A stretch of 30,652 nucleotides of DNA from a virus (IMGVR_UViG_3300045988_047713:1-30652), one strand, 5' to 3'. Counted from the stretch's first letter, positions 1,202 to 29,424 are shown. Numbers and translations: made by a program. Notes: generated by a model from the sequence alone, not told the origin.

Positions 1202-1244
1202 ACTTTAAAAGGTGTTGTGTAATCTGTCAAGAATTATTTTACAC
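1202..1244 (-). promoter_or_regulatory. conserved sigma70-type promoter, copy 1 (minus strand)
   Basis: -35 TTGACA (1230-1225), 17-bp spacer, -10 TAAAGT (1207-1202), AT-rich UP element TAAAATAATTC upstream of -35; about 30 nt upstream of the 1169 start. Confidence 0.55.
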
Positions 1245-1263
1245 TCGCCTTTCGTTGATGCAG

Positions 1264-1307
1264 ATGTTAGAGGAATAAGTTGCAATACGTCAAGAACTAT
1301 TTTAAAC
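1264..1307 (-). promoter_or_regulatory. conserved sigma70-type promoter, copy 2 (minus strand); possible divergent partner for the helicase gene
   Basis: -35 TTGACG (1293-1288), 18-bp spacer, -10 TAACAT (1269-1264). On the plus strand the same motif gives TTGCAA (1280-1285), 17 bp, TAAACT (1303-1308), about 30 nt upstream of ATG 1340. Confidence 0.45.
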
Positions 1308-1339
1308 TTTTTTCACGATTCGATATTACAGGGTAGAAA

Positions 1340-3001
1340 ATGAAAGCTCGTTATTATCAGACTGAAGCTATCAATAACGTATGTCAGGCATGGTCAAGCG
1401 GTGCTGACGACGTGATTCTTGTGCTTCCCACGGGGGCAGGAAAAACGTTCTGTATGTCTGAACTGGTAAAAACAAGAGACGGTGTAAAAGTCATCCAGGC
1501 ACACCGTAAAGAACTGGTTAGTCAAATCGCAATGGCTGTTGCTCGCCAGGGATTACCACACAGATTTATAGCGCAAAAAGATACTGTTAAGTTTGCAACT
1601 AATCAGCAGATGAAAACGCTTGGTTACAGTACCTATTCCCCCGGCGCTGACATCGTTATTACCAGTTCACAAACGTTAAGAACAAAACAGTACGAACGGT
1701 GGTACAACGATGTGTCTCTTGTATTCAGCGACGAAGCGCATCACCTGGTACGTGGCACACAGTGGGGAGACTGCCGGGAAAAATTCCCTAACGCTAAAGG
1801 TCTGGGTGTTACAGCTACACCGATCCGTGCTGACGGTAAAGGCCTGGGTCGTCATGCGTCAGGTTACGCAGATCAGATGATCATCGGTCCATCAATGCGT
1901 GAGTTAATCAGCCAACAACACCTGGCTGATTATCGCCTGATCATGGCTGAAACAGACCTGGAATTAACTGCAGAAATGATTTCCCATACTACGGGTGATT
2001 ACAAACCCTCTGCGTTAAAAAAAGCGATGGAAGATTCAAACATCGTTGGTGATACCGTCAGTACGTGGAAAACATATGCAGATGGTTTACTCACTGTTGT
2101 GTTTACGTGTGATGTGGATTCTGCTGAAGCACTGGCACAAGAATTTCGCGATGCGGGTATTCCAGCAGAGGCGATCAGCTCACGAAACAGCAATCAGGAA
2201 CGAGCGGATATCCTGGAACGTTTTGAACGACGTAAAACACTCGTGCTATGTAATAACGATTTATTCGGTGAAGGGTACGATTGCCCGGCAATGGAATGTG
2301 CTGTAATGGACCGTCCAACAGAATCTTACTCTTTGTTTGTACAACAGATGGGTCGTCCGTTGCGTTTCAAACCGGGTAAAAAAGCACTGATTATTGATAA
2401 AGTCGGTAATGTTCGTCGATTTCTGGCCCGTGGTTTTCCACTTCCCGATCAGCATTACAACTGGTCTTTAGACGACCGTGACCGTCGTTCATCAAACAGC
2501 AGTGGGAACAGTAACACAACATGTACAAACAAGGGTGATCCTGATAACGGTATTCCACCGTGTCTGAAGCCTTACCCATCTGGTCTACCGTGTTGCCCGT
2601 ATTGTGGTCATGTTCCTGAAAAAGCCGAACGCTCAGGCCCGGATCGTGTAGAAGGTAATTTGCGTGAACTGACACCTGAAGAACTGGAAGAATTACGCCG
2701 GGCAGTGGTAATAATCGACCGTGATCCTGTTGCGGTAAAAGAACAAATGTTGAACGCGGGTGCACCCCATGTTGCAGCTTACAGTGCAATGAAAAATATT
2801 CAGGCAATGAACGATGCACAGCGTAAGTTACGTAGCATGATTACCACATGGGCCGGTATTCAGCGTGACAAAGGTATACCCGTTGATGACGCTTACAAGA
2901 TGTTTTACAGGGTGTTTGGTGTTGATGTGCTCAGTGCTCAGGGATTACGTACTCGTGAAGCTAATGAACTCGCCGCAAGGGTTGCAAGTTCATTAATCTG
3001 A
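1340..3001 (+). CDS. superfamily-2 DNA helicase (DEAD/DEAH-type) with C-terminal Cys-rich zinc-ribbon-like segment
   Basis: 553 aa; N-terminal ARYYQ motif, Walker A LPTGAGKT, Walker B/DEAH-like FSDEAHH, Cys cluster CLKPYPSGLPCCPYCGH. Confidence 0.8.
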   Translation: MKARYYQTEAINNVCQAWSSGADDVILVLPTGAGKTFCMSELVKTRDGVKVIQAHRKELVSQIAMAVARQGLPHRFIAQKDTVKFATNQQMKTLGYSTYSPGADIVITSSQTLRTKQYERWYNDVSLVFSDEAHHLVRGTQWGDCREKFPNAKGLGVTATPIRADGKGLGRHASGYADQMIIGPSMRELISQQHLADYRLIMAETDLELTAEMISHTTGDYKPSALKKAMEDSNIVGDTVSTWKTYADGLLTVVFTCDVDSAEALAQEFRDAGIPAEAISSRNSNQERADILERFERRKTLVLCNNDLFGEGYDCPAMECAVMDRPTESYSLFVQQMGRPLRFKPGKKALIIDKVGNVRRFLARGFPLPDQHYNWSLDDRDRRSSNSSGNSNTTCTNKGDPDNGIPPCLKPYPSGLPCCPYCGHVPEKAERSGPDRVEGNLRELTPEELEELRRAVVIIDRDPVAVKEQMLNAGAPHVAAYSAMKNIQAMNDAQRKLRSMITTWAGIQRDKGIPVDDAYKMFYRVFGVDVLSAQGLRTREANELAARVASSLI

Positions 3002-3042
3002 TGGTAATCTGCATAGAAATATTTTAAACGTAAGGAACTGTA

Positions 3043-3549
3043 ATGCGTGATTTGATGGTTGACATTGAGACGTGTGGCACTAAACCAGGTTGTGCAGTGC
3101 TGTCAATTGGCGCTGTTTACTTTGATCGTCAGGGTAACATTGGTGAAACGTTTTACGCATCAATGGGTTTTAATGCGCTCGCTTACGGTCACACAGACCC
3201 TGACACTATGAAGTGGTGGTCGCAGCAGTCAGAACAAGCACAAAAAGATGCTTTTGGTGGTACTGCCGATCCTGTTCAGGTTGCTAAAGATTTTGCCAAA
3301 TTCATCTGGCACGATGCTAAACCGTGGGGCAATGGTTCCACATTCGATATCACTATTCTGGAAGCATGGTTTAATGCTGTTGGGGTTCGTTGCCCGTGGA
3401 AGTTCTGGAATGTTCGTGATGTTCGTACAGCTGTTGATTTGCTGGGTATTAACCCGAAAGAATTTACCCGTGACGGTACTTACCACAATGCGTTAGACGA
3501 CTGTTTACACCAAATTAAATATCTTACTAGTGGGACTAAAACATTATGA
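3043..3549 (+). CDS. DEDDh-family 3'-5' exonuclease (DnaQ/RNase T-like)
   Basis: 168 aa; Exo I motif MVDIETCG, Exo III motif YHNALDDC. Confidence 0.75.
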   Translation: MRDLMVDIETCGTKPGCAVLSIGAVYFDRQGNIGETFYASMGFNALAYGHTDPDTMKWWSQQSEQAQKDAFGGTADPVQVAKDFAKFIWHDAKPWGNGSTFDITILEAWFNAVGVRCPWKFWNVRDVRTAVDLLGINPKEFTRDGTYHNALDDCLHQIKYLTSGTKTL

Positions 3550-4037
3550 CAACGCTTGAACAATGGGCGATTCGTCACGGTATTAGTCAGATGGCGTTGT
3601 ACGAGTTATACGCGCTTTATCAGCCTGACGGAACACCACACGAAGACGGTGTAAGTGAAAGCGCCACCAGTAAAGAGTGTGAACTGATTGCGGCACGTGC
3701 CGGGCAACGTATCTGGCGTAATAACTCAGGTGCTCTGAAAAACGAAAAAGGAATGATGGTTCGTTATGGTCTTGGTAACACCAGTGCGAAAATCAACGCT
3801 GTTATGAAGTCAAGCGACTACATCGGCATTAAAACCAAAATCGTTACACCGGATATGATCGGTTCGAAAGTGGGTGTCTTTATTGCTGCCGAAATGAAAC
3901 GCCCTGGCTGGCACATGATCCCCAGTGATAAACGTGCACAAGCACAGGCCACTTTCGGTGCGATTGTTGAAAACGCAGGTGGTGAATTTCGTTTCATCAC
4001 TCACCCTTCACAATTTGAAAAATGGATTAAACAATGA
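3546..4037 (+). CDS. VRR-NUC-like nuclease (PD-(D/E)xK fold), tentative
   Basis: 163 aa; WRNNSGA ... SSDYIGI ... AAEMKRPG spacing matches the VRR-NUC D...E.K pattern; ATGA overlap with exonuclease gene. Confidence 0.5.
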   Translation: MTTLEQWAIRHGISQMALYELYALYQPDGTPHEDGVSESATSKECELIAARAGQRIWRNNSGALKNEKGMMVRYGLGNTSAKINAVMKSSDYIGIKTKIVTPDMIGSKVGVFIAAEMKRPGWHMIPSDKRAQAQATFGAIVENAGGEFRFITHPSQFEKWIKQ

Positions 4038-4207
4038 ATACTGAACGCATTGAACGTCTGCAAAAACTGATTGATAACCACGGTATTGAAGCTGTTGCCA
4101 AACGTCTGAACGTTACTGAAATTCATGTTAAACGTAATCTGCTTACCGGGCGATCTGCTATCAACCTGGTCAAACTGATGGCTGCTGAACGTCAGTTCGG
4201 AGCGTAA
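4034..4207 (+). CDS. small hypothetical protein (57 aa), possibly helix-turn-helix
   Basis: ATG overlapping the upstream TGA (ATGA); fills the gap between two genes; MNTERIERLQKLIDNHGIEAVAKRLNVTEIHVKR. Not in ORF track (<60 aa). Confidence 0.4.
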   Translation: MNTERIERLQKLIDNHGIEAVAKRLNVTEIHVKRNLLTGRSAINLVKLMAAERQFGA

Positions 4208-4210
4208 ATT

Positions 4211-6565
4211 ATGAAAGGGTTACTGAACCGTAAACAGTGGGTCATGTGGCGACTTGAGACAGTCGCCGATCGTCCAAAACCAACGAAAGTACCATACAGC
4301 CCGGTACACGGTTATAAAGCCAGTACCACTAACCCTAACGACTGGTCTGACTATCACACCGCGTTGGGTATGGCGCAAATGTACGGTATGTCTGGTGTTG
4401 GTTTCGTATTCACAGAAAACGACCCTTATTTCTTTATCGATGTTGATAACTGTCTGGTAGATCAGGCGACAGCTACGTGGTCACCTCTGGCGCATGAATT
4501 CGTAAACCGTTTCCCAAATGCTTACACTGAAGTAAGTCAGTCAGGAACAGGTTTACATATCATCTGTGCTTATACCAGCATACCGGAAGGTTTTAACAGT
4601 CTGAACGACCAGAAAACCGGGCTGGAAATGTACTGGCGTGATCGTTTCGTCGCGATGACGCTCACGGGTAATGGTGATGTTGATATTGATTATACCCAGG
4701 GTATTCATGATTCTATTGCCCGGTATGGTCGCATCCGTTCAGACCGTTCCGCACGCTGGACAACAGCACCCTGTGATGACTGGTCAGGCCCGGCAGACGA
4801 TGATGAACTGATTAAAATGGCGTTAAATTCGTCCAGTGCTGCTTCAGTATTTGGTAATAAAGCATCATTTGCGGATCTGTGGAATGCAAACGTTGAACGC
4901 CTGTCTGTGTCATATCCCAGCGACCAGGGAAAAGACTACAATGCATCTGCCGCTGATGCTGCCTTGTGCTCACACCTTGCGTTCTGGACCGGAAAAGATT
5001 GCGAACGTATTGAACGATTGTTTAACCGTTCCGGGCTGGTTCGTGGTAAATGGACAGATCGTCAGGATTACCGTGAAAACACAATTCTGGGCGCTGTGGA
5101 ACGTTGTGATACGGTTTATCGTAGTCAACCGACGCTGACACCAGAACTGATGAAAGCAGTCACACCAGCGCCTACCATCGTTCCTAATGGTGGAACACCT
5201 GCGTATATGAGTGTGAAACCCGGTGAAGGTGCATATGGTTCAAACCACACGGTTAACGCATCCACGTTCGTTAATAACTATTATCCGAACAACACATTAA
5301 TTTTCGTCCAGCAACAGCCGTACCGGTTTAATGGTCGTGTATGGGAACGTGTGAGTGAAGATGAACTGAAACATCAGATATCTATGGCAATGCTCGCCAG
5401 CGAACCAAAAGCTGACGTGATTAATGGTACGTACAAGGTATTGTCGTATTTATTCACACGGGCTGATCGTGAGCTTGGAACATGGCCCGGTGTTGATGTA
5501 TCACACTATATTGTTTGTCAGAACGGGATACTGGATGTACATACGGGTAAATGTGATGCACATAACCCGGATTTCTTTACGACCAGTATTTTACCATATA
5601 GCTATGATCCGTTTGCCCGTGCGCCAGCATTTGAACAGTTTCTTAATACAACTCTGGAAGGTGATCAGGAACGTATTGCACTGTTGCAAGAATGGCTTGG
5701 TTACATGCTTGTCAACTCGTATGACTATCAGAAAGCGATGCTGTTGATTGGTGCGCCACGTTCCGGTAAAGGTACGATCGGTCGTATTATTCAGGCACTG
5801 GTAGGTGACGAAGCATATGCAGGGATCACACTGGAGGGTTTAGCTAGTGATGCGGTACTTGAAACTGTGCTGGATAAATCTGTGCTGTTTATTGGTGATG
5901 CTCACAGTGTGTCCGGGCCTGATCGCAACCGAATTCTGGACCGTTTCAAATCTATTACAGGTTGTGATGCGATTCCGGTTAATCGTAAGTATAAAGGTGC
6001 ATGGAACGGTCGTTTACCGGGACGTATGACACTGGCTGCTAACAACATACCTGCATTTGCTGATGATTCAGGTGCAATGGCTAACCGTTTGCTGATCCTA
6101 CCATTCAACATTTCGTTCCTGGGTCGTGAAGATACCACTCTGGAAGCACGACTGATGAAAGAACTACCGGGGATCTGTAACTGGGCGATTGAAGGTTTGC
6201 AACGGTTACGTGCAAACGGACGGTTTACTGAACCAAAAGCAAGTCTGGAAGAACGTCAGGAAATTATGGATCAACAATCACCACTTAGAAGTTTTATCAG
6301 AGATTGTTGCGAATTGGTATCTGATGGTGAGGTGCACACTGAAGAACTATATGGTCGTTATCGTCTCTGGAAAACACAGGAAGGTGGTCCAGCAATGACT
6401 AAAACTGCATTTAGTCGGGCGTTTAAATCCACCCTTCGTGGTAAAGTGAAAAAAGACGTTGTTAATATAAATAACGTTCGACTAAACGGTTTCAGGGGTA
6501 TTCGTCTTCTCCCTTTTCAGTCAACAGCTAATGTAGTGCCTTTCCCACCTGCGAGTAACGGTTAG
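4211..6565 (+). CDS. DNA primase-helicase: PrimPol-type N-terminal domain fused to D5_N / P4-family SF3 helicase
   Basis: 784 aa; VHGYKASTTNPNDW...GVGFVF...FIDVDNC (bifunctional primase-polymerase motifs); Walker A LLIGAPRSGKGT; Walker B-like VLFIGDAHS. Confidence 0.8.
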   Translation: MKGLLNRKQWVMWRLETVADRPKPTKVPYSPVHGYKASTTNPNDWSDYHTALGMAQMYGMSGVGFVFTENDPYFFIDVDNCLVDQATATWSPLAHEFVNRFPNAYTEVSQSGTGLHIICAYTSIPEGFNSLNDQKTGLEMYWRDRFVAMTLTGNGDVDIDYTQGIHDSIARYGRIRSDRSARWTTAPCDDWSGPADDDELIKMALNSSSAASVFGNKASFADLWNANVERLSVSYPSDQGKDYNASAADAALCSHLAFWTGKDCERIERLFNRSGLVRGKWTDRQDYRENTILGAVERCDTVYRSQPTLTPELMKAVTPAPTIVPNGGTPAYMSVKPGEGAYGSNHTVNASTFVNNYYPNNTLIFVQQQPYRFNGRVWERVSEDELKHQISMAMLASEPKADVINGTYKVLSYLFTRADRELGTWPGVDVSHYIVCQNGILDVHTGKCDAHNPDFFTTSILPYSYDPFARAPAFEQFLNTTLEGDQERIALLQEWLGYMLVNSYDYQKAMLLIGAPRSGKGTIGRIIQALVGDEAYAGITLEGLASDAVLETVLDKSVLFIGDAHSVSGPDRNRILDRFKSITGCDAIPVNRKYKGAWNGRLPGRMTLAANNIPAFADDSGAMANRLLILPFNISFLGREDTTLEARLMKELPGICNWAIEGLQRLRANGRFTEPKASLEERQEIMDQQSPLRSFIRDCCELVSDGEVHTEELYGRYRLWKTQEGGPAMTKTAFSRAFKSTLRGKVKKDVVNINNVRLNGFRGIRLLPFQSTANVVPFPPASNG

Positions 6566-6581
6566 TCATTGCACAAGGATG

Positions 6582-6624
6582 TGTAAAATAATTCTTGACG
6601 AATTACAGATGTGTGCGCTATAGT
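6582..6624 (+). promoter_or_regulatory. conserved sigma70-type promoter, copy 3 (plus strand)
   Basis: UP element GTGTAAAATAATTC, -35 TTGACG (6595-6600), 18-bp spacer, -10 TATAGT (6619-6624); drives the operon 6656-8887. Confidence 0.6.
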
Positions 6625-6655
6625 CTGTACATCAAGTGAACAAGGAGTGATTGTT

Positions 6656-6853
6656 ATGAAAAACATATTTGACCGTTTAATTACTGTTATCGTATTTCTT
6701 GTGTCCGTAACGCTCGCGTCTTGTATTGTCGGACTAATGACCCGTGGTAATCATGCGGAAACTCCGTGGTGGTTTCTGGCAGGTATTGGGTTATTAGCGG
6801 CTGCTGCATCAATTGGCGCTTGCATGTGGGGAGTGAAAAACGATCATGACTGA
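6656..6853 (+). CDS. small membrane protein (65 aa, two predicted TM helices)
   Basis: AAGGAG RBS 8 nt upstream of ATG 6656; hydrophobic stretches LITVIVFLVSVTLASCIVGL and WWFLAGIGLLAAAASIGA. The track start at 6611 lies inside the promoter -10, so the internal ATG is preferred. Confidence 0.6.
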   Translation: MKNIFDRLITVIVFLVSVTLASCIVGLMTRGNHAETPWWFLAGIGLLAAAASIGACMWGVKNDHD

Positions 6854-7061
6854 GTTCGGTGCTGTAATCAAAAAAGAAGACCGTTATGCACATATTGATA
6901 CCCGAATTACCTGGGTTGATATCAGTGAAGCTACCCTGTTCAGTTCAACTTACATGGCTGGAGTTGCACTTAAAGCACTTCACGATCAGGGTTTCAATTG
7001 CAGAAAAATAACAATTGCGCCTGTTAAAATCACGCGGATCGTCGAGGAGACAGAAGGATGA
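6846..7061 (+). CDS. hypothetical protein (71 aa)
   Basis: ORF overlapping the upstream stop; same operon. Confidence 0.5.
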   Translation: MTEFGAVIKKEDRYAHIDTRITWVDISEATLFSSTYMAGVALKALHDQGFNCRKITIAPVKITRIVEETEG

Positions 7062-7762
7062 AAATTGTCTGGTCATTATTCGACGGTTCAGGGATTATGG
7101 GCTTACCGTGGGCTGAGGCTGGTTATCATGTTTATTGTTTTAATGCTGATGGTGCAGATCATGGACCATATGATAAATTTCATGCGAGATACATCCACGA
7201 GGGGCTTCATTATATAAATACATGGATAGATGTTAATTTTATGAATGCTGCGGTTGCGGGTATTTATGGGAAGCCGGATATTATATTTGCATTCCCCCCA
7301 TGTACAGACATGGCTGTAAGTGGTGCATCAGCGTTTGAATCTAAAAGGAAAAAAGATCCGTTATTTCAAGAAAAAGCAGCATTTACGGCAATGATTGCAA
7401 GTAGAATCGCTGACCATTTCAATATTCCGTATTTTGTTGAAAACCCGGTCAGTGTTCTTTCTACTTTTTGGCGAAAACCTGATTATATATTTAACCCGTG
7501 GGAATATGGTGGTTATCTACCTGAAAATGACATTCATCCTTTCTTTCCTGAGCATATTAACCCACGAGATGCTTACCCTAAGAAAACATGTTTATGGACA
7601 GGTAACGGTTTTATTATGCCAGAAAAGAAAATTGTCCCGGTTAAAAAAGGTTATTCAAACCAACATCTTAAATTAGGCGGAAAATCTACTAAAACAAAAG
7701 TCATCAGGTCATTAACCCCGCGTGGTTTTGCTCGCGCTGTATTTGAGGCTAACAAACAATGA
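7058..7762 (+). CDS. minimal DNA (cytosine-5)-methyltransferase-like protein, no recognisable target-recognition domain
   Basis: 234 aa; motif I LFDGSG (aa 7-12), motif IV FPPCTD (PC catalytic dipeptide, aa about 79-84), motif VI FVENP (aa about 126-130), C-terminal LTPRGFARAVF resembling motif IX; spacing of I/IV/VI matches classical C5-MTases but the protein ends at 234 aa. Confidence 0.6.
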   Translation: MKIVWSLFDGSGIMGLPWAEAGYHVYCFNADGADHGPYDKFHARYIHEGLHYINTWIDVNFMNAAVAGIYGKPDIIFAFPPCTDMAVSGASAFESKRKKDPLFQEKAAFTAMIASRIADHFNIPYFVENPVSVLSTFWRKPDYIFNPWEYGGYLPENDIHPFFPEHINPRDAYPKKTCLWTGNGFIMPEKKIVPVKKGYSNQHLKLGGKSTKTKVIRSLTPRGFARAVFEANKQ

Positions 7763-8031
7763 TAATCGTCGTCACAGGTGGTCGTGACTTCAACGACAGA
7801 ACAGCAGTGTTTTCAGCATTAGGGTTACTTCACAAACAATTCCCGGTTACCGAACTGATTGAAGGTGGTGCGTCAGGTGTTGATAACCTGTGTAAGCAAT
7901 GGGCGCAATTACACGGTATTCCTGTGCGTAGTTGCCCGGCAGCGTGGGACGATCTGACTGTACCTGGTGCGGTTGTAAAACAGGGTAAGCACGGGACATT
8001 GACCATTTATCACGGGCTGAACCTGTGGTGA
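7759..8031 (+). CDS. SLOG-superfamily (DUF2493/DprA-LOG-like) protein, apparently short or truncated
   Basis: 90 aa; MIIVVTGGRDFND...LIEGGASGVDNLCKQWAQLHGIPV matches the DUF2493 N-terminal Rossmann core; ATGA overlap with the MTase-like gene. Confidence 0.55.
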   Translation: MIIVVTGGRDFNDRTAVFSALGLLHKQFPVTELIEGGASGVDNLCKQWAQLHGIPVRSCPAAWDDLTVPGAVVKQGKHGTLTIYHGLNLW

Positions 8032-8279
8032 AAACTATAAAACTGTGTGATCTGCTGGATAACACATCTTCAATTGTCCGACACGATCCGAAGTTTGCTG
8101 TAACTTACCTGGCTGAAAAACAACTCATGCTTGCTCACCTGTCAGACGCCAGTAATCAGGAATTATACGCGCTTGTTGAGCGTGAATTGTTTAAAGCCAA
8201 ATACAAACTAACGAACGTCCAGTTGACAGCGTTTGACAAACACTACGACGCACTGATTAAAGCGATGGGGGAGTTGTGA
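8025..8279 (+). CDS. hypothetical protein (84 aa), GTG start overlapping the upstream stop
   Basis: ORF track frame; GTGGTGA start/stop overlap; no recognisable motifs. Confidence 0.4.
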   Translation: MVKTIKLCDLLDNTSSIVRHDPKFAVTYLAEKQLMLAHLSDASNQELYALVERELFKAKYKLTNVQLTAFDKHYDALIKAMGEL

Positions 8280-8281
8280 TT

Positions 8282-8536
8282 ATGAATAAAGCGTCGCCTG
8301 TAGAAATACGCAAGTGTCTTGAAATGGCAAACAGTCTTGCACATGCCGGGATTAGATTTGTCCCTGTACCGGTAACCAGTGATGATGAATTTAATTCGCT
8401 GGTTTCTCATTCTTACGGGATACTGGACAAAATAGCAGACGATTGTGATACGACTAACCGCCAGTTCGAAAGCCTCAGCAACCACAAACATCACTTCATC
8501 AACGGCACTTGCGTAGAGTGCCTGAAAAGTGAATAA
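8282..8536 (+). CDS. hypothetical protein with C-terminal CxxC (GTCVEC)
   Basis: ATG at 8282, 3 nt after the upstream stop; the track start at 8276 is a GTG two codons upstream. Confidence 0.5.
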   Translation: MNKASPVEIRKCLEMANSLAHAGIRFVPVPVTSDDEFNSLVSHSYGILDKIADDCDTTNRQFESLSNHKHHFINGTCVECLKSE

Positions 8537-8599
8537 CTACCTGTTCATACTATTCATCAGTGCGCTCTATGTGGCGCACGTTTTCTATGAGGTGTACCG

Positions 8600-8887
8600 A
8601 TGACCATAAGACGTGTTGTGTGTGCGGCAAATAAATATGAACTTAACGATGGTTCAACTAAGATTTTCACTGGTATCCGACACTATTGTCCCGTTATGCG
8701 TCAGAATATAGAGTTCTGGAAATTATCCATCAAACGTTCTACAGAAGTACAAGGCTTTGTAGATCAGTATGGTGTTTTCATGGACCGTTTTGAAGCACTT
8801 CAGGTTGCAAAAGATGCCGGGCAACTGAATATCGCCAGACCAAAAACATCACCTGAAGATCGGTTATTTAGCGAGGACTTATACTAA
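8600..8887 (+). CDS. hypothetical protein (95 aa)
   Basis: GAGGTG RBS 7 nt upstream of the ATG; last gene before a strong terminator. Confidence 0.55.
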   Translation: MTIRRVVCAANKYELNDGSTKIFTGIRHYCPVMRQNIEFWKLSIKRSTEVQGFVDQYGVFMDRFEALQVAKDAGQLNIARPKTSPEDRLFSEDLY

Positions 8888-8893
8888 CAAAAA

Positions 8894-8922
8894 AGCGGGG
8901 CTAACTACCCCGCTATCTTTAT
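8894..8922. terminator. bidirectional rho-independent terminator
   Basis: Hairpin AGCGGGG-CTAACTA-CCCCGCT (8894-8914), A-run upstream and T-rich run downstream, so it works on both strands; lies between convergent genes. Confidence 0.75.
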
Positions 8923-9737
8923 TGACCCATCATATCTTTATACATCATCAAAACAACATCATCCGGCATATTGTCTACATCACAATGTGGGTTATGCGAT
9001 AACGCATACAGTCTGATTTTCTCCTTCAAATCGCTGACATCGACTACAGGTGGTTCCACTCGTGCTACAGGTGGTTCCACTCGTGCTACAGGTGGTTCCA
9101 CTCGTGCTACAGGTGGTTCCACTCGTGCTACAGGTGGTTCCACTCGTGCTACAGGTGGTTCCACTCGTGCTACAGGTGGTTCACAAACCATCACGTTAAA
9201 CGGTGTACCGGTGCCTTCGTATTTTTCAAGCAAATCGACCATTACGTTTACACATTCCGGGATCCAACCCCGGCGCAAACCATTCTGAATCCAACTGTCA
9301 GTAATTGTGTGTTCGTTTAAATTTCTGCGTAACACGTATCTGGTACATTCAAAATTACCGCACATCGCCTCAAACCGTGTCCACACGTCGTGACCGTGAA
9401 CAGCTTCCAGGATCTGTGAATCAACATATCTGACACGTTGCCAGTAGTTATTAGCAAAACGCCTGTGTGGTAATTTCTGACGCAGTTCGGTAACCGGTAT
9501 TGTGCGTTTAAGAACAATGTTTTCGTCAGAATGTTGTACTGACAAGGGTGACAGTGTGAAGTCAGTAATCTCTTCAAGAATAATACTGATCGTTTCAATT
9601 TTAGGATGAAATCTACCGCTCAACCATTGGTTGTAACGACCAACAGTTACCTTAACACCTCGACGATTAAGGTATTCAACAGCATTTTGCACCCCGCCTT
9701 TTAAATCTATCAATTCGTCTAAAAGGTTCTTTTTCAT
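8919..9737 (-). CDS. hypothetical protein with N-terminal HTH-like segment and 7 tandem EPPVARV heptads
   Basis: 272 aa from ATG 9737 (AAGGTG RBS 7 nt upstream; the track start at 9773 is 12 codons further); internal perfect 21-bp nucleotide repeats; sits directly beside the operator array. Confidence 0.6.
   Translation of the reverse strand: MKKNLLDELIDLKGGVQNAVEYLNRRGVKVTVGRYNQWLSGRFHPKIETISIILEEITDFTLSPLSVQHSDENIVLKRTIPVTELRQKLPHRRFANNYWQRVRYVDSQILEAVHGHDVWTRFEAMCGNFECTRYVLRRNLNEHTITDSWIQNGLRRGWIPECVNVMVDLLEKYEGTGTPFNVMVCEPPVARVEPPVARVEPPVARVEPPVARVEPPVARVEPPVARVEPPVVDVSDLKEKIRLYALSHNPHCDVDNMPDDVVLMMYKDMMGQ
9044..9190. repeat. perfect tandem repeat, 21-bp unit CTACAGGTGGTTCCACTCGTG, about 6.7 copies, in-frame within a CDS
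   Basis: Read directly: identical units from 9044 to about 9184; encodes the EPPVARV heptads on the minus strand. Confidence 0.9.
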
Positions 9738-9780
9738 TATCACACCTTCTTTATTTAACCACGGATAAATCATAACTCGC

Positions 9781-9955
9781 GTTAGCAGCTAGTGCAAGAT
9801 GTGCTTTATATGTTAGTGCACTTACACCTAATACATATTGTGCTTTAACGGTTAGTGCAAGATGCACGTTGTGCATTAGCTGTTAGTGCACGTTGTGTAT
9901 CTATGTTGGTACAGTTAGTGCACGTTGTGTATTATATAGTGCACGTTATGCATTA
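9781..9955. promoter_or_regulatory. array of 5-7 palindromic operator/iteron-like sites (core TAGTGCACGTTGTGCATTA)
   Basis: Copies near 9790, 9812, 9861, 9885, 9917, 9938; each contains an inverted repeat TGCAC-N3-GTGCA; spacing about 25-35 bp. Confidence 0.6.
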
Positions 9956-9967
9956 AAGTTATACTTA

Positions 9968-10085
9968 ACATAGATTGCATCATGTTTATTTTTTAACCAA
10001 CCTTTCTCTATCTTATTCTTTTTATTACCTTTTTATAGATAACATAGAAAACATAGATAAATAGAAGAAGTAGTATAGAAAGATA
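9968..10085. repeat. AT-rich intergenic element, copy A of a ~105-110-bp duplicated sequence
   Basis: CATGTTTATTTTTTAACCAACCTTTCTCTATCTTATTCTTTTTATTACCTTTTTATAGA...ACATAGATAAATAGAAG is about 90 percent identical to 29201-29310. Confidence 0.8.
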
Positions 10086-10225
10086 GAGATAGTACATATA
10101 GTGTATTAGCTGTAAATAGAGCTAAAATAAAAGTCTGGGAGATACCTATTGTAATCTATGTTTTTATGCAAGTCTTTGAAATCATTGTGATTATTGGCTA
10201 CGTATTTATGTATGTGGTCGAAAAT

Positions 10226-10243
10226 TAGTGCATGTTGTGCATT
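10226..10243. promoter_or_regulatory. isolated operator copy (TTAGTGCATGTTGTGCATTA)
   Basis: Same palindromic core as the 9781-9955 array, about 100 bp upstream of TerS. Confidence 0.45.
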
Positions 10244-10348
10244 AACTGTAAACTTAATACTAACATTGTATTAGCTGTAAAACAGGGCGTGTAGACAACC
10301 CGTGGGTATCTGTGGGAAACTAATTTAAAATTTATGGGAGACAAATTT

Positions 10349-10984
10349 ATGAAAATTTCAGACCGGGCTAAAAGAGCTGCTCTGGAGTTAACAACCGATC
10401 AACTACGCTTCGCTAACCTGTGGTTAGATCGTGTCAATAACGGCTTCAGCAACGCTCAGTGCGTCTTACACGCTTATCCGGGGCATAAAGACCCTGACGC
10501 AGCTAAAGTCACCGCACACCGCCTCCTGTCGAATAGGAAGGTGTTGAACTATCTGGACGCGATGGGAAGTCATGCGCTTGAGTCTGTCGGGGAATCGTTA
10601 ACGAGTCGTGTCGAGTGGTGGAAACGAGCGGCAAGCACGGCTGAAGAATTACTGGAACCGTATTGTCAGCGCGTAATCGTCCCTGGTGAAGACGACACAG
10701 AAGCGAAACACCTGTGGGTGAACAGTACCGACGATATCCCCAGCCATCTTCAACAGTACGTAGTTTGCTACAAGCGTTACATGCTGGGCGGATACATTCT
10801 GGTGACGCGTGAATTGTTCGATCCGAAAACTCGTGCAAAAGCGTCTGAACAACTGGATAAAATCACCGGGAACAGTATCGACCGTGTGGAATTGTCTGGT
10901 GTGGTTGGTAACGTGGTTCAGAGTGTTCCTGAAGGTGCAACTATCGACGATATCGCGCAACTGTATCAGAAGGCGCTTAAATAG
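10349..10984 (+). CDS. terminase small subunit (TerS)
   Basis: 211 aa from ATG 10349 (GGGAGA RBS); N-terminus LTTDQLRFANLWLDRVNNGFSNAQCVLHAYPG...AHRLLSNRKVLNYL fits the small-terminase HTH pattern (LT.KQ.RF...A...AGYS...LL.N.KV). Confidence 0.65.
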   Translation: MKISDRAKRAALELTTDQLRFANLWLDRVNNGFSNAQCVLHAYPGHKDPDAAKVTAHRLLSNRKVLNYLDAMGSHALESVGESLTSRVEWWKRAASTAEELLEPYCQRVIVPGEDDTEAKHLWVNSTDDIPSHLQQYVVCYKRYMLGGYILVTRELFDPKTRAKASEQLDKITGNSIDRVELSGVVGNVVQSVPEGATIDDIAQLYQKALK

Positions 10985-10993
10985 GCGGTTGTT

Positions 10994-11028
10994 CCGGCTT
11001 AAATCGTGCCGGAAACCGTTTGCGTTTT
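10994..11028 (+). terminator. weak terminator-like hairpin downstream of TerS
   Basis: CCGGC-N9-GCCGG stem followed by a T-rich stretch (GCGTTTTCG); T-run is separated from the stem. Confidence 0.25.
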
Positions 11029-11098
11029 CGATAAACAAGGTTAGGTGGTGCAAGTGTACTGTTGAAGGTGTTAAGTTCGTCAGAGAGCGTTTTAGAAA

Positions 11099-13080: not shown

Positions 13081-13124
13081 AGTCTATCTGATGATGTGTA
13101 AACCGTCAAGAATTATTTTAAATT
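13081..13124 (-). promoter_or_regulatory. conserved sigma70-type promoter, copy 4 (minus strand)
   Basis: -35 TTGACG (13109-13104), 17-bp spacer, -10 TAGACT (13086-13081), UP element TAAAATAATTC; drives the rdgC operon. Confidence 0.55.
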
Positions 13125-14984: not shown

Positions 14985-15214
14985 ACCTGTAACCCTCTTG
15001 TTTTTTGTTTAGTGACAAGATATCTCTTCAACCCGTCGCAACTAATTTCACAATCCCCGCAGGAACCACCATCCAACCAGATGATGCATAGTGTGTGATT
15101 TCGTGGGGTGAGTTACGCTTTATACTCACCGTAGCGCCTGACAATCAGCGGTATCTTCAGCCGGACAATTCCGGGTTACTACATACTTGGTCAGGTATCT
15201 TGTCTATGACAACA

Positions 15215-15258
15215 ACTATACAGATACATGAGCAATCTGTCAAGAATTATTTTAAACC
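15215..15258 (-). promoter_or_regulatory. conserved sigma70-type promoter, copy 5 (minus strand)
   Basis: -35 TTGACA (15243-15238), 17-bp spacer, -10 TATAGT (15220-15215), UP element; about 220-nt leader to ATG 14984. Confidence 0.55.
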
Positions 15259-15319
15259 TCTGTTACCACCTGTCACCCGTGGTAAACTGTACAGAACAGT
15301 TACAAACGGACCGATAATC

Positions 15320-17083: not shown

Positions 17084-17090
17084 ACAGTGT

Positions 17091-17120
17091 GGCGGGATTA
17101 TTCCCGTCATTTTCTTTTTT
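17091..17120 (+). terminator. rho-independent terminator after TerL
   Basis: Stem GGCGGGA / TCCCGTC (one G-U pair), 4-nt loop, followed by ATTTTCTTTTTT; the T-run doubles as the UP element of promoter copy 6. Confidence 0.5.
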
Positions 17121-17156
17121 AATTCTTGACAAATTACATTATAAATGTTTGTAAAT
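17112..17156 (+). promoter_or_regulatory. conserved sigma70-type promoter, copy 6 (plus strand), -10 ambiguous
   Basis: -35 TTGACA (17126-17131) with conserved flanking AATTC...AATTAC; candidate -10 TTGTAA/TGTAAA at 17149-17155. Confidence 0.45.
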
Positions 17157-17190
17157 TATCTGTTAGATTAATGTAACACGTCTATACTCC

Positions 17191-19301: not shown

Positions 19302-19327
19302 GCCCCGGAACTGTCCGGGGCTTTTTT
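19302..19327 (+). terminator. rho-independent terminator
   Basis: GCCCCGG-AACTGT-CCGGGGC followed by TTTTTT. Confidence 0.75.
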
Positions 19328-21232: not shown

Positions 21233-21276
21233 AGCATAATCGCACGTTTGCAATCCGTCAAGAATTATTTTAACAC
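21233..21276 (-). promoter_or_regulatory. conserved sigma70-type promoter, copy 7 (minus strand)
   Basis: -35 TTGACG (21261-21256), 17-bp spacer, -10 TATGCT (21238-21233), UP element. Confidence 0.55.
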
Positions 21277-21295
21277 CGTGCAAAAAAACCATCAC

Positions 21296-21304
21296 TGATA
21301 TAAC
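21296..21304 (+). promoter_or_regulatory. candidate extended -10 promoter for the portal gene
   Basis: TG-A-TATAAC (TG 21296-21297, hexamer 21299-21304), about 40 nt upstream of ATG 21344; near-identical to TGATATAAT upstream of the MuF-like gene. Confidence 0.3.
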
Positions 21305-21343
21305 ATACGTTAAGAACCGTAAACCGTATGGAGCCTGTAAAAC

Positions 21344-22705: not shown

Positions 22706-22733
22706 AAGGGACCGTTACTGGTCCCTTAATTTT
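22706..22733. terminator. bidirectional rho-independent terminator
   Basis: AAGGGACC-GTTACT-GGTCCCTT flanked by A-run upstream and T-run downstream; between convergent genes. Confidence 0.7.
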
Positions 22734-23455: not shown

Positions 23456-23499
23456 AGGTTACACGTCCTTGTGTAATCCGTCAAGAATTATTTTAAATT
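23456..23499 (-). promoter_or_regulatory. conserved sigma70-type promoter, copy 8 (minus strand)
   Basis: -35 TTGACG (23484-23479), 17-bp spacer, -10 TAACCT (23461-23456), UP element. Confidence 0.5.
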
Positions 23500-23736: not shown

Positions 23737-23737
23737 T

Positions 23738-25223: not shown

Positions 25224-25268
25224 ATGTTAGTGTGATCGCTTGCAATGTGTCAAGAATTATTTTAAACT
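25224..25268 (-). promoter_or_regulatory. conserved sigma70-type promoter, copy 9 (minus strand); possible divergent partner for the gene at 25297
   Basis: -35 TTGACA (25253-25248), 18-bp spacer, -10 TAACAT (25229-25224). Plus strand: TTGCAA (25240-25245), 17 bp, TAAACT (25263-25268), about 30 nt upstream of ATG 25297. Confidence 0.5.
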
Positions 25269-25296: not shown

Positions 25297-26055
25297 ATGA
25301 TGTTTGAACATCCGTGGAACATACCTGCATATGATGCTGAAAGTGAAAAACAATCACTTGACTATCAAATGAAAACACAACAAGTAGACTGGAGTGAAGC
25401 GCCAGACTGGGCTACATGTGTTGTTCTTAATAAGACAACAAACACTTTTGCATGGTCTGATGGTTCAATGTACGCACCAATTTTAAGAAATCCGCCACAA
25501 ATTATGGAGAATGCTGATGACTTTGAAATCTTTGAAAAACGCCCTTGTGGTCCAGCAACACCTGTCAAAACAAAACTGTTAATGACACCGAAAGCCCGTG
25601 GTAATACTTACGAAGAATTCATTGCGACCGGGTGGAATGACGACCAGTTAGTCGAACATGGTTATGCTGTTCGTATTACAGACAAACGTTCCTGGTCACC
25701 AATGACCGTCGGAACTGAAACAATTACACCACCGTCAAACTGTCGGTGCACATTCACACCCGTTCAACAACCATCAACAGCGTCTGATTTACTGAAACAG
25801 GCTGAACAGCTACTGACAGAACGTGGTAAGCAGTATGACACGTCTAGTCAGGAACGTTCGTCAGCTAAAATAGTTGCTGCGTTTAACACAATTACCGGGC
25901 GCGATTTAACACCAGGTGAAGGATGGTTGTTCCTGATGTTGTTAAAAGCGGTTCGTTTCTATTCCAACACTGAAACACCACATCGTGACAGTCTGGAAGA
26001 CCTGATCAGCTATGCTGCATTACACGCAGAGGAATATCTTAACAATGAACGGTGA
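25297..26055 (+). CDS. hypothetical protein (252 aa)
   Basis: GAGGA RBS; no confidently recognised domain. Confidence 0.5.
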   Translation: MMFEHPWNIPAYDAESEKQSLDYQMKTQQVDWSEAPDWATCVVLNKTTNTFAWSDGSMYAPILRNPPQIMENADDFEIFEKRPCGPATPVKTKLLMTPKARGNTYEEFIATGWNDDQLVEHGYAVRITDKRSWSPMTVGTETITPPSNCRCTFTPVQQPSTASDLLKQAEQLLTERGKQYDTSSQERSSAKIVAAFNTITGRDLTPGEGWLFLMLLKAVRFYSNTETPHRDSLEDLISYAALHAEEYLNNER

Positions 26056-26551: not shown

Positions 26552-26555
26552 CACG

Positions 26556-26564
26556 TGATATAAT
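26556..26564 (+). promoter_or_regulatory. extended -10 promoter for the MuF-like gene
   Basis: TG-A-TATAAT (TG 26556-26557, TATAAT 26559-26564); predicted start falls inside the left arm of the adjacent terminator hairpin. Confidence 0.45.
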
Positions 26565-26566
26565 CG

Positions 26567-26594
26567 GCCTCAGTGTGTTAACTGAGGCTTTTTT
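26567..26594 (+). terminator. rho-independent terminator abutting the MuF-like start codon
   Basis: GCCTCAG-N8-CTGAGGC followed by TTTTTT, then ATG at 26595; the right arm contains the GAGG Shine-Dalgarno of the downstream gene. Confidence 0.6.
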
Positions 26595-27554
26595 ATGGCT
26601 ACTAAAGACCCATACCCGGATATTTCAGACAAGTATGACGCTCGCATTCGCGAAGCACTTGATGTTGTGTGGGAAAACGTGCGTCGTAGTGAGTCGTTAG
26701 CTAACCTGGAATACATCATTGAAACTCAGGGTATTACCGGGCTACTCCCCATTCTTGAAACACTCCCTGATGAACTTAGTGCACAGTTGCGCCCGGTTAT
26801 TGAAGACGCGATCGCCGAATCAGGTCGTGTAGTCGTTCAGGTTTTACCGAAAGCGGCTGTGACAGGTCCGGTTGTGTTCAGTCTGGTCACCCCACAGGTC
26901 AGTACATACATCAACAACTATGTCGGACAACTGATCCGTGAAGTCAGTGACGAAACAGTCAAAGCTGTTCAGATTGCTGTTAACCAGGGTGTGGTAACCG
27001 GACGAAATCCGCGTCAGATAGCCCGTGATTTTCGATCATCAATAGGGTTAACCACACGGCAAGAAATGACGGTTCAACGTCTGCGATCAGCACTGGAAAA
27101 AGGTGAAGCAGGTTATATGAACAGTCTGACCACTGTTACAGACAGTGCGAAGAACGCTGTAAGTGCCGGGAAACTATCACAGGCGAAGATTGACCAGATA
27201 ATCGAACAGACACGCTTGCGTTACGTAAAACAGCGTACAGAGACAATAGCGCGTACTGAATCACTTCGTGCTGTATCAGTTGGTCAGGATCAGGCAATAC
27301 GTCAGGGACAGATTACCGGGGCTGTTAGTAATGAATTGCTGAAGCGCTGGTTATATAGAAAGGATGGTCGGACACGTGATGCGCATATTTCCACGGGTGA
27401 AACGAACGGTTGGATACCAATGGACAGACCGTTTTCAACGCCGTTAGGACCACTTATGTTTCCTCGTGATCCTAACGGTAGTGCCGCTAACGTGATTAAT
27501 TGTCGTTGCAGGGTACAGTATAGTTTGCCGGAAGATATAGGTTCATTGGGTTAA
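26595..27554 (+). CDS. head morphogenesis protein, Mu F / SPP1 gp7 family
   Basis: 319 aa; C-terminal region ...NGWIPMDRPF...ANVINCRCRVQY matches the conserved end of MuF-like minor head proteins. Confidence 0.7.
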   Translation: MATKDPYPDISDKYDARIREALDVVWENVRRSESLANLEYIIETQGITGLLPILETLPDELSAQLRPVIEDAIAESGRVVVQVLPKAAVTGPVVFSLVTPQVSTYINNYVGQLIREVSDETVKAVQIAVNQGVVTGRNPRQIARDFRSSIGLTTRQEMTVQRLRSALEKGEAGYMNSLTTVTDSAKNAVSAGKLSQAKIDQIIEQTRLRYVKQRTETIARTESLRAVSVGQDQAIRQGQITGAVSNELLKRWLYRKDGRTRDAHISTGETNGWIPMDRPFSTPLGPLMFPRDPNGSAANVINCRCRVQYSLPEDIGSLG

Positions 27555-27781: not shown

Positions 27782-27786
27782 AGCGG

Positions 27787-28223: not shown

Positions 28224-28226
28224 AGG

Positions 28227-28610
28227 TTATTCCCCAGGGTGACGGATATTCAGATCCGGGAGAATTTGCATCGGGTTAAACGTAACACGATAACGATACT
28301 GATCTGTTGGTGAAGGGTCTATTTGTTCAATGAAATAAGTTACCTCCGTGGTTAACCCCATAAAGTGTTTCTTAACGTCGTTCGGACCAGTTTTACAGGT
28401 GATTTCGATCTCTTTGCTAGTGTTCTCACGGGCACAACGACCTTCGATAGACAAAAGATACTCACCGTTACGAACGTTATAGAAAACGATACGACGATTT
28501 ACTTCAAAGTTAGCTGCAGCGGTTGCAACGTTACGACTGGCAACATCAGCAGCATTATCACAGGCTGTCAAGGTTGTTGTCAGTAATGCACACAGGATCA
28601 GTTTCTTCAT
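28227..28610 (-). CDS. lipoprotein (127 aa)
   Basis: Signal peptide MKKLILCALLTTTLTAC with lipobox LTAC. Confidence 0.6.
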   Translation of the reverse strand: MKKLILCALLTTTLTACDNAADVASRNVATAAANFEVNRRIVFYNVRNGEYLLSIEGRCARENTSKEIEITCKTGPNDVKKHFMGLTTEVTYFIEQIDPSPTDQYRYRVTFNPMQILPDLNIRHPGE

Positions 28611-28625
28611 TTTAGTGTCTCGGAG

Positions 28626-29009
28626 TTATTTAATGATTAATGTTGGTTGTAAGTCTTCTTCGTACCACGTCCAACCAATACACGCACCATCTTCAGCATC
28701 AACATATGGTTTCAACCAATCGATAAATTGTTCAATCTCACCACCATAATTTTTAATATCACTACGACTAAAAACATATTGAGTATCGGTGAAATCAAAT
28801 TTAGGACAACTATTTATTACTTCCGGGTGATGATAAAAACTGCTACAACTACCAATAAAATTCCATCTGGGAAGACTGAAAAACTTATGTTGTGGTAGTT
28901 TCTCTGGTTCTTTTTCACCACAGAACATGTGTGCAATAATAGCTTTCACATCCACGGGTGCATCTACTTTAATCTGACACTTCAACACTAATTCGGTATA
29001 CATTCCCAT
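28626..29009 (-). CDS. hypothetical protein (127 aa)
   Basis: ATG 29009 with GAGGA RBS; the track start at 29084 lies inside promoter copy 10. Confidence 0.5.
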   Translation of the reverse strand: MGMYTELVLKCQIKVDAPVDVKAIIAHMFCGEKEPEKLPQHKFFSLPRWNFIGSCSSFYHHPEVINSCPKFDFTDTQYVFSRSDIKNYGGEIEQFIDWLKPYVDAEDGACIGWTWYEEDLQPTLIIK

Positions 29010-29055
29010 TTTCACATCCTCATTCACCAGCAACCCATTGTCGCTCCCTGTGATA

Positions 29056-29099
29056 AAGATATACCACAGTTTGCAATCCGTCAAGAATTATTTTAAAGA
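29056..29099 (-). promoter_or_regulatory. conserved sigma70-type promoter, copy 10 (minus strand)
   Basis: -35 TTGACG (29084-29079), 17-bp spacer, -10 TATCTT (29061-29056), UP element. Confidence 0.55.
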
Positions 29100-29101
29100 T
29101 A

Positions 29102-29188
29102 CAGCTAATACAGAACGTGTACTAACTGTACATGGTTTTACATAGGTTTCATGATTTTGAGTTGCAGCTAATACACGTTCTGTATTAG
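29102..29188. promoter_or_regulatory. two palindromic operator-like sites (CTAATACA-N5-TGTATTAG family)
   Basis: 29102-29128 (CAGCTAATACAGAACGTGTACTAA) and 29167-29188 (GCTAATACACGTTCTGTATTAG, perfect 8-bp arms); architecture related to the TAGTGCACGTTGTGCATTA sites at 9781-9955. Confidence 0.5.
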
Positions 29189-29200
29189 TAGATCATAAAT

Positions 29201-29310
29201 TCATAGATTTCGTCATGTTTATTTTTTAACCAACCCTTCTCTATCTTATTCTTTTTATTACCTTTTTATAGAAAACATAATAAACATAGATAAATAGAAG
29301 AGTAGTATAA
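29201..29310. repeat. AT-rich intergenic element, copy B of the duplicated sequence
   Basis: About 90 percent identical to 9968-10085 with two small indels. Confidence 0.8.
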
Positions 29311-29382
29311 GTAGTATAAGTTGCTGTAAGTAGGAGAGGTTTAAAAGGTATAGGGGGGTCGCATACTTCCCATGAATCTATA

Positions 29383-29424
29383 CGTAAAATAATTCTTGAC
29401 GGATTACACCGACACAACTACCCT
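29383..29424 (+). promoter_or_regulatory. conserved sigma70-type promoter, copy 11 (plus strand)
   Basis: UP element, -35 TTGACG (29396-29401), 17-bp spacer, -10 TACCCT (29419-29424). Confidence 0.5.

Follow-up and report, generated by a model that had tools for sequence, protein, structure and literature searches.

Introduction

Phage-specific extended consensus sequences are a familiar phenomenon in early promoters. Phage T4 reportedly carries ~40 early promoters that share such a consensus, with a -35 resembling GTTTAC and an extended -10, and ADP-ribosylates the alpha subunit of RNA polymerase. T4 middle promoters combine a MotA box at -30 with a sigma-70 remodelled by AsiA, and T4-type phages are also said to carry promoter-early stem-loop (PeSL) cassettes. 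On the bacterial side, the block upstream of the ribosomal RNA promoter rrnB P1 of E. coli reportedly serves as an UP element. Here we analyse a 30,652-nt stretch of viral DNA (IMGVR_UViG_3300045988_047713:1-30652; hereafter 'the window'), in which eleven copies of one motif, with the consensus (T)TTAAAATAATTC-TTGACR-GATTRCA (R, A or G), lie before genes. We read this repeat, with a probability of roughly 0.8, as a promoter cassette of 9NA-like phages for the host RNA polymerase carrying sigma-70.

How does the locus compare with these systems? With promoters of the rrnB P1 type the cassette shares an A/T block adjoining the -35, a near-consensus -35 hexamer and a spacer of 17-18 bp. The 13 bases before the -35 agree with rrnB P1 at nine positions in the same register (TTTAAA, T, and the TC adjoining the hexamer), and the rrnB P1 sequence itself is 100% identical in all 5,426 E. 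coli genomes, ~290 bp before a 16S gene and next to murI. Unlike rrnB P1, the cassette conserves only the -35-proximal half of the A/T block typical of UP elements (~-38 to -59) and not the distal half, keeps that half invariant rather than degenerate, has a weak and variable -10, and carries GATTRCA after the -35. T4 early promoters resemble it in being numerous, in using sigma-70, in a conservation that reaches into an A-rich upstream region and in heading short early units of small genes; they differ in that the cassette has a canonical TTGAC, no TGn and no known modifying enzyme. With T4 middle promoters it has in common a sigma-70 TAnnnT -10 and a conserved phage-specific sequence near -30. 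However, its canonical TTGAC -35 lies 17-18 bp from the -10, so no appropriation of sigma would be needed, and Pfam found no AsiA, MotA-like, sigma or RNA polymerase family among the 56 open reading frames (ORFs) of the window, the rest of the genome being unscanned. As in PeSL cassettes, a conserved early-type promoter bounds small variable gene modules and homology breaks at the promoter; unlike in PeSL cassettes, no conserved sequence or dyad adjoins the motif, and hairpins occur only at some operon ends. Lastly, Cronobacter phage CR3, an unrelated Certrevirus, has a near-identical A/T block before TTGAC at four sites in 50 kb, in its small-gene region (TTTAAAATAATGC-TTGACG and TGCAAAATAATTC-TTGACG, followed after a 17-bp spacer by CATAAT or TACAAT, before small genes). 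Its spacers, in contrast to those of the cassette, are G+C-rich palindromes, and its A/T block varies more between copies.

The biology of the 9NA-like phages has been described as little known. The motif string occurs in no open-access paper searched, a search outside which the main genomics paper on the group (Zeng et al. 2019) fell, and the GenBank records of phages Sasha and Sergei have no feature at the copies inspected. The paper on phage vB_EcoS_AVIO78A gives seven generic promoters only; in the record of that phage, sites orthologous to two copies in the window (17126 and 25253) are marked as promoters, as generic TTGACA-N-TATAAT matches. The paper on phage 9g concerns a different phage.

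Eleven copies directed at gene starts

The 16-mer TAAAATAATTCTTGAC matches the window at ten places with at most three mismatches (nine exactly, one with a single mismatch), as compared to a mean of 0.58 and a maximum of 3 in shuffled sequences. A de novo repeat finder returned the same sites as two families, one of eight members on the minus strand (D2) and one of three on the plus strand (D10). Together these bear out the eleven copies of the original prediction, ten being near-exact and one, at 17126, degenerate. By the first T of TTGAC, the copies lie at 1230, 1293, 13109, 15243, 21261, 23484, 25253 and 29084 on the minus strand and at 6595, 17126 and 29396 on the plus strand, and the span 1202-29424 is bounded exactly by the -10 elements of the first and last copies. 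The shorter core TTGACGGATTRC has 14 matches at up to two mismatches (4.9 expected); those at 6189, 22671 and 27294 are intragenic, lack the upstream block and are noise.

Each of the eleven copies has TTGACA or TTGACG as its -35, and in ten of them a TAnnnT hexamer follows 17 or 18 bp later (TAAAGT, TAACAT twice, TATAGT twice, TAGACT, TATGCT, TAACCT, TATCTT and TACCCT), an arrangement found at 3.4% of random window positions. All the hexamers that had been listed for the region are thus present at this distance; the exception is copy 17126, which has no TAnnnT at 16-19 bp and whose nearest is TAAATT at 20 bp. A generic scan with the sigma-70 consensus was uninformative, yielding 25 and 34 sites in the two halves of the window where ~31 were expected in each.

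The copies were also said to face adjacent gene starts, and all eleven do. In a window that is 86% coding, ten of the cores contain no coding bases, and the core at 23484 overlaps just the last 10 bases of the upstream ORF, including its stop codon. Seven copies have their start codon 59-64 nt from TTGAC, preceded by an A/C-rich leader and a Shine-Dalgarno sequence; the distance is 46 nt at 29084, 119 nt at 17126 and 259 nt at 15243.

Conservation among relatives and beyond

By megablast, the window is part of the genome of a 9NA-like siphophage (Nonanavirus/Sashavirus). Escherichia phage KarinMuster_Bas82 is 95-96% identical to it over 1-11051; vB_EcoS_AVIO78A, PJ16 and two Sashavirus records are 95-96% identical from ~10074 onward; the Salmonella phages Sergei, Solent and 9NA reach ~85-87%, and a group of Klebsiella phages ~78%. 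From the phage collection we assembled four relatives, namely Bas82, 9NA, Klebsiella phage Carvaje and Proteus phage PmiS-Isfahan, and counted the motif in each. It occurs 15 times in Bas82, 10 times in 9NA, nine times in Carvaje and, in variant form, nine times in PmiS-Isfahan; the same 26 bp recur 9-15 times per genome in relatives from E. coli, Salmonella and Klebsiella. A BLAST search of the phage collection with a 30-mer likewise hit multiple places in every 9NA-like record (9-13 in complete genomes, fewer in the partial records of SP069 and SP-062) and single places only in other phages.

Across the window and these four genomes, TAnnnT lies 16-19 bp from the -35 in 45 of 54 copies, against a background of ~7%, and five of the remaining nine keep nAnnnT (GATAAT twice, CATAAT, CATACT and CAGTAT). 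Information content was measured in 44 distinct copies from enterobacterial phages. Counted from TTGAC, it amounts to 1.4-2.0 bits at positions -11 to +4 and +7 to +12, except for the R position +10 (1.04 bits), and to 0.8-0.9 bit at -13 and -12. The rule by which copies were selected inflates these figures somewhat, but most positions are identical in 44 of 44 copies, far above the threshold used. Positions 0-4, TTGAC itself, are invariant or identical in 43 of 44. Farther upstream the sequence is at background, and downstream only the -10, in blurred form, and an A-rich leader rise above it.

In four-phage alignments of the intergenic regions on the TerL and portal sides, the motif forms an invariant block amid diverging flanks. 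PmiS-Isfahan, whose portal protein is 61% identical, has TTTAAAAT-ATAGC-TTGACA-GATTRCA with TAnnnT at 17 bp; its deviations at -40 to -36 follow a lineage-consistent pattern (ATAGC, ATGGC or AATGC for AATTC). Since this variant retains TTTAAAAT, TTGAC and GATTRCA, these parts are older than the genus. Vibrio phages with a portal protein ~43% identical do not have the motif. The genes behind the cassettes are far less conserved than the cassettes, and many are without a detectable homologue even in 9NA or Carvaje.

Outside the group, similar sites are scattered. Besides CR3, the Uetakevirus BUCT711, a Klebsiella phage, has one site with a near-identical A/T block before TTGAC (L141, 2001-2050). 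Eight of the 5,426 E. coli genomes contain a cassette-like site, one copy each, and in the two of the eight that were examined it lies in a prophage. In strain MB07152 (L139, 3001-3075) the prophage carries the exact 26-mer including GATTGCA, with -10 and ATG spaced as usual; immediately behind it come a DUF1902 gene and then a HicA toxin gene, in a hicAB-like operon; in strain A16 (L140, 3001-3110) the cassette precedes a small unannotated ORF and then a YafO toxin gene. Neither BLAST nor tblastx found anything else in common between these prophage loci and 9NA-like genomes. An exact 16-mer scan of viral contigs was uninformative, with more than 119 mostly single matches in unrelated contigs, and a scan with a 20-mer, covering one genome for each species, gave eight single matches in unrelated metagenome-assembled genomes, about the number estimated from chance.

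A probable sigma-70 promoter with an UP-like block

On the reading we favour, the cassette would be read by unmodified host holoenzyme (E-sigma70), with TTGACR as the -35, the TAnnnT 17-18 bp downstream as the -10, and the invariant TTTAAAATAATTC adjoining the -35 as a proximal UP element for the C-terminal domain of the alpha subunit (alpha-CTD). Transcription would start ~36 nt downstream of the first T of TTGAC and run through an A/C-rich leader of ~25 nt and a Shine-Dalgarno sequence into the first gene. That such an A/T block also stands before TTGAC in phages and prophages of no relation to this one points to the host enzyme as its reader, and the presence of the exact 26-mer in an otherwise unrelated prophage favours a cassette that depends on the host enzyme only and may move between elements. 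Among the 107 genes of the complete relative Bas82, none is annotated as a single-subunit (T7-type) phage RNA polymerase.

Which genes would such promoters serve? In the proposed scheme the cassette heads the leftward replication operon, rightward clusters past the primase gene and every leftward cluster of small accessory genes. The 15 copies of Bas82 are found at every leftward small-gene cluster, at the leftward replication operon (as a tandem pair) and at three rightward small-gene clusters, two past the primase gene and one past TerL, and one serves a small ORF that overlaps the first head gene. None of the TerS, TerL, portal, head-morphogenesis and tail genes is directly served in this genome. 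Judging by this distribution, the cassette most likely defines an early, or constitutive, transcription class.

Several points weigh against this reading. UP elements are normally degenerate, and a block of 13 bp that is near-invariant across ~20% genome divergence exceeds what binding by the alpha-CTD alone is known to require. To our knowledge, E-sigma70 makes no base-specific contact at GATTRCA (~-29 to -23). Copy 17126 is without a properly spaced -10, and the class cannot be called purely 'early only', since copy 29396 reads on into head genes. Finally, the searchable literature contains no transcription-start, RNA polymerase-binding or expression data for 9NA-like phages, which means that function and timing of the cassette (polymerase binding, the action of the alpha-CTD on the A/T block, the predicted starts, the early expression) are inferred. 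The same holds for two words of the original prediction, which had proposed strong UP-element-dependent sigma-70 promoters organising the region into short operons: every sequence-level test that was run came out in favour of this architecture, and 'promoter' and 'strong' are inferences from it. GATTRCA is a conserved part of the cassette whose role known sigma-70 contacts do not explain; a phage factor, an intrinsic effect of the spacer on promoter strength, or homogenisation by recombination could each account for it.

If the sigma-70 reading holds, it would provide a concrete transcription map for a little-known group, with ~10-15 identical promoters per genome. At ~110 bp, promoter plus leader form a compact unit that looks portable and might be tried as a strong constitutive part in E. 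coli, Salmonella and Klebsiella. The combination of invariant promoters and fast-changing cargo may offer a convenient system for studying the exchange of small accessory genes, and the GATTRCA block poses a small, directly testable question on spacer recognition.

Alternative explanations

The uniformity of the motif might be due to recombination rather than to selection on each promoter base, the 26 bp serving as a homology 'linker' for module exchange. Homology to Bas82, 9NA and Carvaje breaks in or at cassettes (at 15232-15234, 13096, 1241, 6645-6661, 21201/21217 and 23460), and 15 of the 102 ends of high-scoring BLAST segments fall in cassettes where 2.9 are expected. This suggests that the cassette acts as a recombination joint for gene modules, as does the finding that the genes behind an invariant cassette are often unique to one phage. 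Within non-coding DNA, however, the excess is only ~2-fold (9 against 4.7 expected), the events are not independent, and mosaic phages commonly show breaks at gene boundaries. Moreover, a linker explains uniformity but neither orientation nor the architecture of -35, -10 and Shine-Dalgarno sequence. We regard it as a tentative, on balance unlikely account of the conservation, compatible with the promoter reading and no replacement for it.

Conservation beyond the -35 had also raised the idea of a phage factor. In this scenario the cassette is a sigma-70 promoter combined with an operator at which a 9NA-like factor (a repressor for early shutoff, an activator or a polymerase-modifying system) reads GATTRCA, the A/T block or both, which would account for flanks that are steadier than the -10. 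GATTRCA is nearly invariant in the 44 distinct copies and kept in PmiS-Isfahan; the lineage-consistent change at -40 to -36 in that phage fits co-evolution with a trans-acting factor, or concerted evolution; and CR3 combines a similar A/T block and -35 with a different spacer, so that GATTRCA is no general requirement of the host. Yet there is no candidate protein: Pfam gives only NinH and a marginal HTH_17 among the 56 ORFs, and phylogenetic profiling for a factor that co-occurs with the motif returned no convincing small DNA-binding candidate. The partial palindrome AATTC-N5-GGATT, tried as a palindromic operator, was rejected as evidence because PmiS-Isfahan does not keep it, and the exact 26-mer including GATTGCA stands before a hicAB-like operon in an otherwise unrelated prophage. 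The prophage copy and the blank from Pfam do not settle the matter, as they neither support nor exclude such a factor; overall, we consider it doubtful. More speculative still, and to our minds improbable, is an extension in which GATTRCA, perhaps with the A/T block, is the site of a 9NA-like regulator or polymerase modifier that times the switch from early to late expression, and the cassettes before prophage toxin-antitoxin genes (hicAB-like, yafO) are promoter mimics that trigger abortive infection. If true, such mimics would couple prophage toxin-antitoxin modules to infection by 9NA-like phages.

Could the flanks instead be conserved because the opposite strand requires them? Reverse-complemented, GATTGCAA reads TTGCAA and TTTAAAAT provides a TAAA 17 bp farther on, which would turn the cassette into a bidirectional module with a -35 and a TAAAnn -10 for the divergent gene. 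The original prediction had noted several such opposite-strand TTGCAA-17-TAAACT elements. Two of them are complete and credible as candidate promoters, both on the plus strand and 28-31 nt before start codons. The first, at 1280..1308 (TTGCAA 1280-1285, 17 bp, TAAACT 1303-1308), is formed by the reverse complement of copy 1293, lies 31 nt before the helicase ATG at 1340 and would serve the helicase-to-primase operon; it is retained in 9NA and Carvaje as TTGCAA-17-TATGAT, in Carvaje ~30 nt before gp071. The second, at 25240..25268 (TTGCAA 25240-25245, 17 bp, TAAACT 25263-25268), precedes by 28 nt the ATG at 25297 of the operon that it would serve and reads TTGCAA-17-TAAAAT in Bas82, whereas it is weakened in 9NA (TTGTAA) and lost in Carvaje. 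The remaining elements of this kind did not stand: at 15243, 21261 and 29084 one of the two opposite-strand hexamers fails, the -10-like one lacking its final T, and neither 9NA nor Carvaje preserves TTGCAA at the counterparts of these sites (TerL, portal and capsid side), which have GATTAC. In 9NA the orthologous portal and capsid-side sites have A at the R position, as do those by TerL and on the capsid side in Bas82; the flanks are equally invariant in copies without a divergent gene (6595, 13109, 23484 and 1230), and the TerL, portal and head-morphogenesis genes have a conserved element of their own (see below). As a general explanation, a bidirectional module therefore deserves little credence. 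Separately, G at the R position was tried as a marker of divergent genes and rejected: it is found at five of five such copies and none of the other six in the window, and it fails at the orthologous sites of Bas82, 9NA and Carvaje.

A further reading, in which TAAAAT in the A/T block forms the -10 of a -35-less promoter (late-type or for a phage sigma) with TTGACGGATTRCA as transcribed leader, is barely tenable and was rejected: TAAAAT is invariant and matches TATAAT at five of six positions, but positions -14 to -30 carry <0.3 bit, so that it has no upstream partner, there is no TGn, and the spaced TAnnnT after TTGACR in 45 of 54 copies would be left unexplained. A sigma-54 element (TGGCAC-N5-TTGC) was rejected on inspection because the spacing is wrong, GG is missing and R is A in most copies.

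Gene layout and individual copies

The gene layout was derived from the ORF list and the annotation of relatives. A leftward replication operon starts at ORF 399..1169 (-) and comprises, in Bas82, genes for an exonuclease, an annealing protein and a DNA polymerase; the helicase-to-primase operon occupies 1340-6565 (+). The virion genes follow on the plus strand, with TerS at 10334, TerL at 15320, portal at 21344 and head morphogenesis at 26595, and leftward clusters of small genes without annotated function sit between successive rightward virion genes. Such interleaving of virion and small genes was already noted for 9NA (Casjens et al. 2014). Intrinsic-terminator-like hairpins at 8894-8914 (both strands), 17089-17110 (+), 19302-19321 (+) and 22706-22727 (both strands) bound several of the units, which agrees with the picture of short operons predicted from the promoters.

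Copies 1 and 2 are a tandem pair before the replication operon. Copy 1 (1202..1243, -) reads TGTAAAATAATTC-TTGACA-GATTACA with a spacer of 17 and TAAAGT, and the ATG of ORF 399..1169, the first gene of the operon, lies 61 nt past its TTGAC. Copy 2 (1264..1306, -), 63 bp upstream, reads TTTAAAATAGTTC-TTGACG-TATTGCA with a spacer of 18 and TAACAT; since BLAST alignments to 9NA and Carvaje stop at 1241, it lies outside the stretch aligned to them. In 9NA (45053, -) and Carvaje (44706, -), a weakened motif, TAAAATAATTC-TAAACA-GATTACC, is present in antisense orientation between the helicase and exonuclease genes; no counterpart of it was found in the window.

Copy 3 (6582..6624, +; TGTAAAATAATTC-TTGACG-AATTACA, spacer 18, TATAGT) follows the primase gene and, with its ATG at 6656 (61 nt), leads a rightward small-gene cluster that ends at the bidirectional terminator 8894-8914. 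Copy 4 (13081..13122, -; TTTAAAATAATTC-TTGACG-GTTTACA, spacer 17, TAGACT, ATG 13048 at 61 nt) has the position of an internal promoter within a leftward cluster.

Divergent from TerL is copy 5 (15215..15256, -; TTTAAAATAATTC-TTGACA-GATTGCT, spacer 17, TATAGT, ATG 14984 at 259 nt). The window is identical to Bas82 up to TTGACAGATT at 15243 and unrelated to it beyond. Between this copy and the ATG extends a leader of ~220 nt (14990-15208, -) that is devoid of ORFs of at least 50 amino acids; 9NA shares it in well-conserved form, and Bas82 and Carvaje lack it at this position. A structured RNA in these 220 nt was considered and rejected, as the predicted fold is no better than that of shuffled sequence (z = -0.78) and Rfam gave nothing; indeed, no Rfam model reaches its gathering score in any part of the window.

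The degenerate copy 6 (17113..17157, +; TCTTTTTTAATTC-TTGACA-AATTACA, ATG 17245) keeps AATTC-TTGACA-AATTACA, and in place of TTTAAAAT it has TCTTTTTT, the T-run of the TerL terminator at 17089-17110. Copy 7 (21233..21274, -; GTTAAAATAATTC-TTGACG-GATTGCA, spacer 17, TATGCT, ATG 21201 at 60 nt) is divergent from the portal gene and leads seven small leftward genes. In copy 8 (23456..23497, -; TTTAAAATAATTC-TTGACG-GATTACA, spacer 17, TAACCT, ATG 23425 at 59 nt) it is the A/T block that contains the stop codon of the upstream ORF, and the unit closes at the bidirectional terminator 22706-22727. A dUTPase cluster is led by copy 9 (25224..25266, -; TTTAAAATAATTC-TTGACA-CATTGCA, spacer 18, TAACAT, ATG 25189 at 64 nt). 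Copy 10 (29056..29097, -; TTTAAAATAATTC-TTGACG-GATTGCA, spacer 17, TATCTT, ATG 29038 at 46 nt) leads a leftward small-gene cluster. Downstream of copy 11 (29383..29424, +; CGTAAAATAATTC-TTGACG-GATTACA, spacer 17, TACCCT, ATG 29455 at 59 nt), an ORF of 108 amino acids overlaps the start of the head-gene operon.

A second conserved element and other repeats

On the plus strand, a second conserved element, CGTGnTAnnnT, occurs at 15276-15297, 21295-21316 and 26554-26564, with a weaker instance at 10299-10313. It takes the form CCCGTGGTAAACTGTACAGAAC before TerL, CTGATATAACATACGTTAAGAA before portal and CGTGATATAAT before head morphogenesis (26554), lies ~30-45 nt before the start codons of the rightward virion genes and is invariant in the four-phage alignments on the TerL and portal sides. 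Related sites precede tail genes in Bas82 and 9NA, and in a Vibrio relative CGTGATATACT occurs eight times, five of them before annotated gene starts in the virion-gene region. With its resemblance to an extended -10 (TGnTAnnnT) without a -35, the element is the better candidate for a late-gene promoter.

The window contains further repeats. A 100-nt direct repeat of 94% identity, T-rich and then ATAGA-rich, is present at 9969-10068, upstream of TerS, and at 29202-29301, between the divergent copies 29084 (-) and 29396 (+), in both cases within an unusually long non-coding gap. Iteron-like repeats of ~24-29 nt (TAGTGCACGTTGTGCATTAGCTGT and variants) occupy 9793-9960 and 10090-10281 in the 560-bp non-coding region before TerS and recur at 29106-29132; they are possibly a pac site, an origin or a regulator-binding array. 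PmiS-Isfahan has repeats of its own, ~10 copies of the 26-mer CTGTGTAACAGGTGCTTGTGACTGTG and 12 copies of TGTTTCACTTT, which resemble half a parS site. Finally, within ORF 8919..9773 (-), ~8 tandem units of the 21-bp sequence CTACAGGTGGTTCCACTCGTG at 9023-9211 encode a 7-residue protein repeat.

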